Source: an uncultured Candidatus Saccharibacteria bacterium (lineage in GTDB: Bacteria; Patescibacteriota; Saccharimonadia; Saccharimonadales; SZUA-47). Taken from it: a DNA stretch of 64,000 bases. Below, piece by piece: positions 46,423-46,670 of the stretch (position 1 is its first letter; every line of letters starts with the position of its first letter). The stretch is from assembly GCA_964536485.1 (NCBI GenBank), contig CAZHXX010000003.1, positions 28,101 to 92,100 on the forward strand, in the 5' to 3' direction. The notes under the pieces were generated by a model, which was given only the letters and a program-made list of their open reading frames with translations, was not told the DNA's origin and searched no databases. The translations under genes and the position numbers were made by a program.

Positions 46423-46670
46423 GCCGCACCAGCCTTCACCCCAAAACCGAGAAAATGAGACAGATGATAAAGGAGTCATTGCCGAGGACTAACCGCAATA
46501 TTCCTTTTCAGCAACTATTGCGGTCGCTTGCGTTCCGCAAGGCACCTTTGTCATCTGTTTCTATTTTCATCGCTTGTTTTTGGGGAGGTTGCGGGGTTTT
46601 TGCTTACTTTTGCACCTGGAGGCAAAAGTAAGGCTGGGTAAAGGGCAGGCATCGCCCTTTTAGTACTTTT
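46423..46670 (+). ncRNA. unclassified structured RNA-like element, copy B
   Basis: CCCCAAAACCGAGAAAATGAGACAGATGATAAAGG pairs with CCTTTGTCATCTGTTTCTATTTTCATCGCTTGTTTTTGGGG. Also present: inner hairpin ACCGCAATA/TATTGCGGT, 3' hairpin CTTACTTTTGC-ACCTGGAG-GCAAAAGTAAG and terminator AAGGGC...GCCCTTTT. Confidence 0.6.

Follow-up and report, generated by a model that had tools for sequence, protein, structure and literature searches.

The intergenic elements described here form a family in which a long rod-like hairpin is followed by a pseudoknot, and they recur in a 64,000-nucleotide (nt) stretch of DNA from an uncultured Candidatus Saccharibacteria bacterium (contig CAZHXX010000003.1, positions 28,101 to 92,100). 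This whole stretch is referred to as the window, and element coordinates and strands are given relative to it. Four full copies are present, copy A at 44460-44712 on the minus strand and copies B (46423-46670, the reference copy), C (59325-59578) and D (61131-61420) on the plus strand, in addition to a solo 3' module without the rod at 60407-60495 (+). A sequence-only reading had listed four full copies and a 3' fragment, and had proposed that they belong to a structured RNA-like family of no known class, which does not code for protein and whose helices covary; direct inspection of the sequence, alignment, a pattern search and a covariance model bear out the inventory, and the general proposal is supported. 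A 33-nt pattern common to all five sites (TTTTGNNTACTTTTG-N11-AAAAGTA) is found in the window, with at most three mismatches, at 44505-44537 (-) and from 46598, 59502, 60421 and 61360 (+), where dinucleotide shuffles give an expectation of 0.04 sites; a look-alike at 14559 was dismissed as a chance match within an open reading frame (ORF). The covariance model (R1), built from the family and run over the 64 kb, scored copies A-D at 173-222 bits (172.9, 208, 222.5 and 172.8 respectively) and the fragment at 39.7 bits (E 9e-10), and returned nothing else of note in the window. Minimum free energy (MFE) z-scores against shuffles are -4.0 for A, -6.1 for B, -7.0 for C and -10.5 for D. Copy C is approximately 87% identical to B, all copies are intergenic as claimed, and the four full copies are paralogs that have diverged within one undescribed element family. 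Retention of four to five copies within 17 kb by genome-reduced Saccharibacteria is notable.

A 58-codon ORF within copy B might suggest a small protein gene, and the copies could in principle reflect chance similarity or a known RNA family. These explanations are effectively refuted. The ORF is cut to 19 codons in C, as had been pointed out before, five motif sites occur against 0.04 expected, covariation is strong, and no copy has a match in Rfam 15, either at the gathering score across the window or at E<=10 over 44-62 kb. The families covered include tRNA, tmRNA, 6S, SRP, RNase P, Y RNA, HEARO, OLE, ROOL, GOLLD, raiA, riboswitches and ribozymes, and scans of 25 homolog loci (18, plus a further 7 at E<=5) were equally without a match. 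None of the three outcomes that had been named in advance as refuting the family arose, these being a confident match to a known RNA family, covariation that lost its support once homologs were added, and untranscribed copies bounded by target-site duplications.

The rod and the pseudoknot

In MFE folds of the four copies the outer helix, P1, extends over approximately 45-50 bp, instead of the 25-35 bp first suggested. The rod begins with a C/U-rich lead-in and the sequence CCAGSC; in copy B, the MFE fold and arm energies place the 5' strand of P1, which holds this family-wide start and a AAACCGAG motif, at 46429-46473 and its 3' strand at 46545-46592. The arms of P1 are wholly different between copies while their complementarity is kept. 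Capping the rod are two further helices, P2 and P3, with conserved asymmetric junctions GAGUCA and CGCUUGCGU. P2 lies between these junctions and takes the form UGCC-GA-GGA / UCC-GCAA-GGCA in B and C, becoming a continuous GCGGUAAG/CUUACCGC in A; this continuous 8-bp form is shared by A and the loci L101, L159 and L203 (such labels denote loci fetched from other genomes). Homologs have GCAGUGAG/CUCGCUGC, GCGAUAAG/CUUAUCGC or GCCAGUCG/CGACUGGC, and compensatory UCC/GGA and GCU/AGC stand in place of GCC/GGC in others. In copy B, the junction AGUCAU and the 5' strand of P2 occupy 46474-46488 (supported by P2 covariation across the family), the P3 hairpin ACCGCAAUA/UAUUGCGGU with its loop UUCCUUUUCAGCAAC occupies 46492-46524 (changes on both sides of P3 pairs), and the junction CGCUUGCGU with the 3' strand of P2 occupies 46525-46544 (invariant CGCU..CG.U columns and the P2 pairing table). 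The compensatory changes formerly cited for the inner stem are all readable in the sequence: B has ACCGCAATA/TATTGCGGT, D has ACCACAATA/TATTGTGGT, C has GTCCGG/CCGGAC and A has CCCAAAAGT/ACTTTTGGG. The two junction motifs proposed for all copies are literal in B, C and D but not in A, which has GAGTCAAGCGGTAAGCTGAC and CGCTTGTCGTCC. Helix tips vary in size, as seen in the mini-rod versions described below and in copy D, where alignments and the MFE fold reveal an extra hairpin of approximately 65 nt (61240-61305, +) in the P2 bulge, at the site of GCAA in B and C.

The 3' strand of the rod leads directly into an H-type pseudoknot. Its first stem, S1, is formed by 3-6 nt ahead of YUUUUG that pair with a hairpin loop, giving 3-6 bp including a conserved G.U. 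From S1 the linker YUUUUG, 6 nt in length, leads to the far end of the second stem, S2, which has 11 bp and is built around an invariant UACUUUUG/CAAAAGUA core. In copy B, column statistics and pair counts place this module at 46591-46632, with GCGG as the 5' strand of S1, the linker GUUUUUG, S2 as CUUACUUUUGC/GCAAAAGUAAG and the loop ACCUGGAG, the 5' part of which pairs with GCGG. The tail hairpin of the sequence-only reading is part of this pseudoknot, which had gone unrecognised together with P2 and the wide occurrence of the 3' module. The corresponding motifs of C and D lie at 59502-59534 and 61360-61392, and the pseudoknot hairpin of the solo module at 60421-60453. A short hairpin follows the knot; most lineages have it as UCG-stem-CGAAAC, whereas copies A, B and C have a GC hairpin that resembles a terminator. 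For these copies, a terminator search confirmed the reported GC hairpin and T-run on the element's own strand, at 44490-44469 in A (-), 46640-46660 in B and 59549-59568 in C; D has UCG-hairpin-CGAAAAA in place of the T-run terminator, and the solo module continues with CUCG...CGAAAAA. The structure assigned to copy A, a full element with P1, P2, P3, pseudoknot and terminator-like hairpin, is supported by alignment as well as by its fold and model score.

Pairing within the knot was followed column by column in 132 distinct sequences, with column 0 set at the first T of TTTTG. Columns -4, -3 and -2 of S1 pair with loop columns 18, 17 and 16: -4:18 is GC in 118 sequences, -3:17 is CG in 57, UA in 54, GC in 5 and UG in 5, and -2:16 is GC in 60, UA in 28, CG in 13 and AU in 5. 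S2 comprises columns 5-15 with 24-34, and its outer pairs vary (5:34, GC 60 and CG 59; 6:33, UA 59, GC 26, CG 24 and AU 12; 15:24, UA 67, CG 32, GC 18 and AU 11). In members resembling those of the window, hereafter Patescibacteria-type, S1 reaches -6:20 and includes an invariant G.U pair. Since the linker lies parallel to the CAAAAG strand of S2, a U.A-U triplex between the linker and this A-rich strand could form.

Covariation is strong for every helix, the pseudoknot included. Shuffles and versions with slid partners served as controls. Among 100 diverse sequences, 89.6% of cells in the pseudoknot core are paired compared to 74.0% in shuffles, and 266 cells have changes on both sides compared to 97, a figure reached by none of 500 shuffles; the covariation score is 0.389 against 0.121 for shuffles and at most 0.097 for slid partners, and all six S1 pairs have both-side changes. 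Over the full length, an 11-sequence MAFFT alignment has 89.0% of cells paired (70.5% shuffled), both-side changes in 20 pairs (13.6 shuffled, 0/500) and a covariation score of 0.475 (0.165), while a 78-row alignment of distinct matches, which is fitted to the model and leans towards structure by construction, has 95% paired (69%). Both-side changes affect six of seven P3 pairs in the former and seven of seven in the latter. Hence the addition of homologs, advised by the earlier reading as a check, strengthened covariation and did not weaken it. P1 was assessed by swapping partners because MAFFT cannot align its variable arms: cognate duplexes average -59.7 kcal/mol and non-cognate ones -33.3 (-71.9 and -31.0 for the arms of copy B), and the cognate arm is the best partner in 24/30 elements, the exceptions having insertions. 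The claim that unrelated outer arms still pair is therefore upheld, cognate duplexes being far stronger than non-cognate ones.

The fold is selected on one strand. Rods of 26 elements contain 114 G.U pairs but only 11 A.C 1x1 mismatches (binomial p ~1e-22), whereas a decaying double-stranded palindrome should yield both equally; hence selection acts on one strand in particular. In all four window copies the sense sequence out-folds the antisense, with more G.U in A, B and C, and the complement of the U-rich linker could not make the triplex. The conserved G.U of S1, the variable helix tips, the U-rich linker and the terminators on the same strand favour RNA as the selected molecule. C-GNA-G triloops, a hallmark of DNA mini-hairpins, occur in 59/182 cases in the hairpin that precedes the knot and are not frequent in the hairpin that follows it; these counts are uninformative on DNA versus RNA because redundant gut sequences dominate them.

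Occurrence of the knot across bacteria

An exact-pattern scan of one genome per GTDB species and a second scan of metagenomes each returned at least 120 loci, and the pseudoknot module is present in more than 240 fetched loci (246, with 282 motif copies) from seven or more phyla. In the species-level scan the module was found in Clostridia (Acutalibacteraceae and Oscillospiraceae, with many copies per metagenome-assembled genome, or MAG) and in Dysgonomonas, and the matches listed also include Gammaproteobacteria (Kangiellaceae, Wenzhouxiangellaceae, Vibrio and Psychrosphaera), Fibrobacter, Desulfuromonadales, Endomicrobia, Saccharibacteria and other Patescibacteria. Many of the metagenome loci lie on human-gut contigs, and the element is abundant in human-gut Oscillospiraceae metagenomes. 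IMG/VR contributed only six loci, the E. coli collection had no match, and the phage collection gave no informative annotated match. The plasmid collection had none with copy B as query, and the module as query recovered just two chromosome-sized Acinetobacter baumannii records.

What remains constant across phyla is the knot, mostly followed by NN-UCG-hairpin-CGAAAC; the upstream domain is lineage-specific and can shrink to a mini-rod of approximately 55 nt or vanish. About 30 Patescibacteria-type elements follow the full plan of the window copies, the 5' motif having been compared in 29. In their 5' half, a C/U-rich lead-in precedes CCAGGCUC..AAAC(C/U)GAUG, a variable arm, the junction GA(A/G)UCA, and P2 with P3; the 3' half comprises the junction CGCUUGCGU(U)CC, the complementary arm with CAAUNGUGUUU..GCCUG, and the knot. 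Solo or tandem knots exist as well, and the locus L182 has three knots spaced by 174 and 281 nt, one of them with a compensatory CAC/GUG change. Rod, knot and UCG-hairpin-CGAAAC are likewise found together in Psychrosphaera algicola, whose copy has a compensatory G14C/C25G change, and in a Vibrio MAG. In a Psychrosphaera copy (L113, 4140-4385, -) the S1 strand GCGGCU could alternatively pair with AGCCGC just past CGAAAC, forming a helix that would enclose the knot; other inspected copies are without it.

A simplified version occurs in A. baumannii chromosomes. In NZ_CP064203.1 (L247, 3044886-3044936), a chromosome filed as a plasmid, the module GGTTTTGCCTACTTTTG CCGAAA CAAAAGTAGGTCGAACCGAAGG stands after a long hairpin downstream of a gene, and its loop is too short for the pseudoknot. 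In the Clostridia MAG RGIG4597 (L001, L066 and L091, e.g. L091 2616-2772), two to three tandem units of approximately 61 nt (..GGCUGUAGAAC GUAAAAG..CCACGG..) follow the pseudoknot; as they are without variable spacers, a CRISPR-like reading of these repeats was rejected. Cultured hosts exist in Psychrosphaera algicola G1-22, Aliikangiella coralliicola M105 and Dysgonomonas sp. 521, with the simplified form in Acinetobacter baumannii, and direct tests are therefore possible.

Genomic behaviour and neighbouring genes

The genomic habits of the element are those of a proliferating repeat. Many genomes contain several copies, which in some are near-identical, and adjacent motifs form 18 head-to-head pairs with 3' ends outward, 15 tandem pairs and 2 convergent pairs. 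Copies A (-) and B (+) are such a head-to-head doublet, split by genes for a HAD hydrolase and an aldo-keto reductase; in Patescibacteria doublets the 5' ends are 13-70 nt apart. Long imperfect palindromes with a knot at each end, on opposite strands, are found in Oscillospiraceae (L046 and L070), Wenzhouxiangellaceae (L116, where three 509-nt units stand in tandem), Dysgonomonas and L188, and within these palindromic units compensatory pairs are specific to each arm, on its own strand. Among the matches listed in the species scan, many lie at contig ends, and in the organism that supplied the window, contigs built from short reads break off within B, C and D; the element accounts for recurrent assembly breaks in the genomes that carry it. 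Two further arrangements were observed in passing. L188 (2330-3560) consists of two inverted arms of approximately 390 nt, each with a pseudoknot module, around an ORF of approximately 110 codons, and its repeat runs approximately 150 nt past the knot, including GTCATCCTGAGCGCAGCGAAGGATC-type sequence. A tandem array of 360-nt units in a Eubacteriales MAG (L006) has its third unit interrupted within the pseudoknot motif (6260-6450, -) by an unrelated element of approximately 190 nt with terminal inverted repeats of approximately 22 bp (CAAGCGTTGGAAGTTCAAATCA...).

Such habits invite the explanation that the element is simply non-autonomous mobile DNA, comparable to REP doublets forming hairpins (REPINs; REP, repetitive extragenic palindrome), palindrome-associated transposable elements (PATEs) or miniature inverted-repeat transposable elements (MITEs). 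One strand, for example the lagging-strand template, would fold as single-stranded DNA into a rod and a T.A-T knot, to be recognised and copied by an HUH-type or other transposase supplied in trans, any RNA being incidental. Multiple and sometimes near-identical copies, assembly breaks with many matches at contig ends, head-to-head doublets and tandem arrays, whole-element palindromes in the lineages named above, a shared unit without a promoter whose doublet 5' ends nearly abut, and a patchy taxonomic distribution all accord with it. However, none of the 282 motif copies is adjoined by a transposase or a REP-associated tyrosine transposase (RAYT), the tag GTAG that marks REPs is not kept, the position that follows GTA being variable and covarying with its partner, and a limited search detected no target-site duplication at Dysgonomonas boundaries. 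On the strand that folds, A, B and C are each followed by a terminator-like hairpin and T-run. Moreover, the arms of A, B and D have diverged beyond recognition while pairing, a conserved G.U pair and the junctions are kept, which argues for long-term purifying selection on each copy. We regard mobile DNA alone as a doubtful explanation. The possibility of a foldback MITE, raised at the outset, has a mixed outcome: a neutral foldback is contradicted by the strand asymmetry, but a mobile-element component is real, because the elements break assemblies and form doublets and arrays. Exact-protein look-ups for presence/absence polymorphism gave only contigs of the same organism, broken at repeats.

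Orientation relative to neighbouring genes bears on another explanation, in which the element is a cis-acting, REP-like module at transcript ends, whose knot and hairpins terminate transcripts or protect them from 3'-5' exonucleases. Its knot lies at the element's 3' side with hairpins after it, two-armed elements would cap transcripts arriving from either side, and copy B starts 80 nt past a gene on the same strand. Yet among Patescibacteria-type loci, the opposite strand carries the upstream gene in 19/31 cases (same strand in 12) and the downstream gene in 22/35 (same strand in 13), and both neighbours are most often antisense to the element; from these counts the element is not a gene-class untranslated region (UTR) feature. 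The A-rich strand is internal, so the knot sequesters no 3' end, and a transcript-end role leaves the invariance of UAC/GUA and the rod junctions unexplained. We therefore consider this role improbable. A promoter-like TTAATA-18-CATAAT sits 30 nt upstream of A.

Neighbouring genes, inspected in 8-kb tiles around the matches, did not reveal a partner. A neighbourhood table, suggested by the sequence-only reading as a way to find one, was drawn up for the 246 loci and contained no recurrent protein; clustering of ORFs within 1.5-3 kb of the 282 motifs likewise gave no recurrent family beyond shared loci, housekeeping genes, generic ABC ATPases and spurious high-GC frames. No HUH transposase recurs near copies in these tiles, and a Pfam search of approximately 50 ORFs from the window and L182 identified no TnpB, IscB, reverse transcriptase, RAYT or integrase adjoining copies. 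The larger ORFs of the window, those of an ordinary chromosome, encode ATP synthase, GluRS, a sortase, an S11 peptidase, a LexA-like/C5-methylase fusion and a PD-(D/E)XK protein, and L182 has genes for glycosyltransferases and for an IS3-type integrase. As to possible targets of the variable arms, the rest of the window contains no significant match, and a search of IMG/VR for exact 22-25-nt matches to the arms of A, B and D was negative.

These surveys bear most directly on the idea that the element is an orphan guide scaffold of the TnpB/Cas12 omega-RNA type, with a dispensable 5' stem, a pseudoknot or triplex, terminal hairpin and ...GAAAC linker that would bind a nuclease encoded elsewhere, and a guide in the 10-20 nt after GAAAC. 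The succession of a variable rod, the conserved pseudoknot, a hairpin, the conserved CGAAAC and variable sequence suits such a scaffold, doublets have their 3' ends outward, and copies are multiple and intergenic; published structures of ISDra2 TnpB reportedly contain omega-RNAs with a pseudoknot/triplex core and a dispensable 5' region. Against it, ORFs of at least 250 codons end within 350 nt upstream of 27/282 motifs, all of them ordinary genes and none like TnpB or IscB, and neither protein is encoded in the window. The sequence after CGAAAC is variable in many copies, but in others is still repeat or a terminator: in several lineages the repeat runs well past GAAAC or has a second hairpin-GAAAC unit, and copies A, B and C continue straight into a terminator. 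No match was obtained to Rfam families of the omega-RNA type. A guide scaffold is accordingly an improbable identity for the element.

Other features of the window were recorded independently of the element. A tRNA-Leu(CAA) gene at 9899-9986 (-) has two tandem partial 3' duplicates of approximately 79 nt alongside (9758-9906), 99% identical, which look like a scar of repeated integration or excision at the tRNA. A 133-nt direct repeat, 93% identical, occurs at 55375-55507 and 56517-56649, 1.1 kb apart, its second copy overlapping the 3' end of a 156-aa ORF (56518-56988) with a weak TnsA-like N-terminal match. At 57205-59283, one ORF combines a LexA-type DNA-binding domain, an S24 peptidase and a C-5 cytosine methyltransferase and is followed by a convergent PD-(D/E)XK gene; this arrangement resembles a restriction-modification unit that carries its own LexA-like regulator. 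An AT-rich motif of approximately 32 nt (..ATATTATACTAYAAA..), intergenic and just outside gene ends at 40024-40055, 50829-50860, 53391-53422 and 63423-63454, may be a shared promoter or regulatory box. Directly downstream of D, a proline-/glutamate-rich ORF (61474-62238) contains an imperfect repeat with a 99-nt period (61627-61782).

Interpretation and comparison with known systems

The reading that we favour, with roughly even confidence, is that these are a new family of strand-specific structured elements, probably transcribed, in which the knot docks a factor acting in trans and which proliferate non-autonomously. The elements would most likely be made as non-coding RNAs of approximately 230-290 nt, in which U.A-U triples from the linker may create a rigid knot stacked on the rod. 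This knot would be the docking site of a conserved protein or ribonucleoprotein (RNP) encoded elsewhere in the genome, and the elements would multiply as non-autonomous repeats, in the manner of HEARO RNAs, PATEs or REPINs. We place the functional core in the knot because it alone is conserved in sequence across phyla, while the rod shrinks or vanishes.

Several points weigh against this reading. The trans-acting factor is one that we infer purely, and the triplex is deduced geometrically from the sequence and the order of its strands. Single-stranded DNA, too, forms G.T wobbles and T.A-T triples, and the strand asymmetry and the knot are alone no proof of RNA. No conserved promoter is found upstream of the shared 5' end, and the spacing of 13-70 nt within doublets leaves no space for separate upstream promoters. 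Finally, searching with an exact pattern inflates the apparent sequence invariance of the knot.

A bolder proposal, which we think possible but rather unlikely, is that rod and knot are the RNA or single-strand part of an undescribed, horizontally spreading RNP or mobile system, with a protein acting in trans, the triplex knot as its handle, and the rod arms or 3' tails carrying specificity. If true, this would be a new class of trans-mobilised or trans-guided structured RNA. A knot that is absent from Rfam and invariant in Patescibacteria, Clostridia, Bacteroidota, Gammaproteobacteria, Fibrobacterota, Desulfuromonadales and Endomicrobia implies a conserved molecular partner. Literature searches on the motif sequence and on topic terms returned no description of a rod-plus-knot element. 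For HEARO and the IS605-orfB motifs, once orphan multi-copy structured RNAs, a role as guides of IscB and TnpB was recognised only afterwards, and the family described here is a comparable lead.

Some familiar systems can be set aside on defining features. Integron attC sites have the core consensus RYYYAAC / GTTRRRY (R''/R'), to which the base of P1 (CCAAAAC / GTTTTTG in B, with equivalents in A and D) does not conform, and the window has no integrase. Hammerhead ribozymes have a core of CUGANGA and GAAA on either side of stem II and a UH cleavage site; the element resembles them in having CGAAAC 3' of a hairpin, but the 5' side is GUANNUCG and not CUGANGA, and the CUGAUG-like 5' motif is paired inside P1. 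Arrays of the CRISPR, TIGR or type III antitoxin kind, in which short regular repeats of 28-45 nt, direct or separated by spacers, adjoin cas, tas or toxN genes, were rejected, there being only occasional tandem units of 174-509 nt and no linked genes. A reading as dif or another tyrosine-recombinase site was rejected on sequence grounds; double-stranded binding sites in general are disfavoured because paired positions covary, which such sites do not need. Type III toxin-antitoxin RNAs (ToxI and CptI) are reported to be tandem RNA units that form triplex pseudoknots (PMC4627078). A unit of that kind measures 36-45 nt, and a toxN-like gene comes immediately after the units, whereas the element occurs mostly as single units or doublets, with unit lengths of 75-500 nt and no toxin gene after them.

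The closest structural parallels are triplex H-type pseudoknots such as SAM-II, SAM-V and telomerase RNA, which share with the element the strand order S1-5', U-rich L1, S2-5', S1-3', L3, S2-3'. In these, L1 lies parallel to the A-rich S2 strand with major-groove U.A-U geometry, to which the predicted triplex of the element would correspond. The Rfam models of SAM-II, SAM-V and preQ1 do not match it. Unlike the aptamers of SAM-II-type riboswitches, the knot lies outside 5' UTRs, goes with no particular class of genes, is embedded on the 3' side of a rod of 170 nt and is present many times in a genome; a triplex riboswitch (SAM-II/V or preQ1-II) was rejected, the downstream gene being on the opposite strand in most loci.

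In architecture and behaviour, other parallels come from repeats and RNAs linked to transposons. Omega-RNA and tracrRNA scaffolds, PATEs and sotRNAs resemble the element in layout, their 5' stem being variable or dispensable and succeeded by a conserved pseudoknot core, a terminal hairpin and variable 3' sequence, and omega-RNAs and their orphan derivatives are also multi-copy and intergenic with 3' ends outward. They differ in that no tnpB, iscB or cas12 overlaps or adjoins any copy of the element and the sequence after GAAAC is often still repeat; IS200/IS605 elements lack the symmetric two-armed forms of the rod-plus-knot family. An omega-RNA abutting a TnpB or IscB nuclease gene was rejected on the 27 upstream ORFs and the lack of a recurrent neighbour. 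REP/REPIN-RAYT systems likewise consist of intergenic multi-copy hairpin repeats in inverted doublets and clusters, and GTA(N), a GC hairpin and GAA recall GTAG-tagged REPs. However, REPs are 20-40-nt palindromes and lineage-specific, whereas the element's units are 100-500 nt with a pseudoknot, its core is conserved across phyla, its tag base is variable and paired, and no RAYT was seen near copies. A REP/REPIN with an invariant GTAG (or CGTC) tag was rejected on this basis, the base after GTA being A in 64, C in 28, G in 25 and T in 15 sequences, with covariation, and units far exceeding 40 nt; a foldback MITE was rejected on the excess of G.U over A.C and on two-armed elements whose arms carry differing compensatory pairs, each on its own strand. 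HEARO (the IscB omega-RNA, RF02033) is alike in its large multi-stem fold, in its many copies per genome and in having been suspected of mobility before its partner was understood, and unlike in sequence and structure, by the Rfam scans, and in that no element copy has an associated ORF. The element is thus a multi-copy, structured intergenic element or non-coding RNA that fails the testable defining features of each named system; by analogy, it appears to be built like a triplex H-type pseudoknot on a rod and to behave like a HEARO, PATE or REPIN-type repeat.

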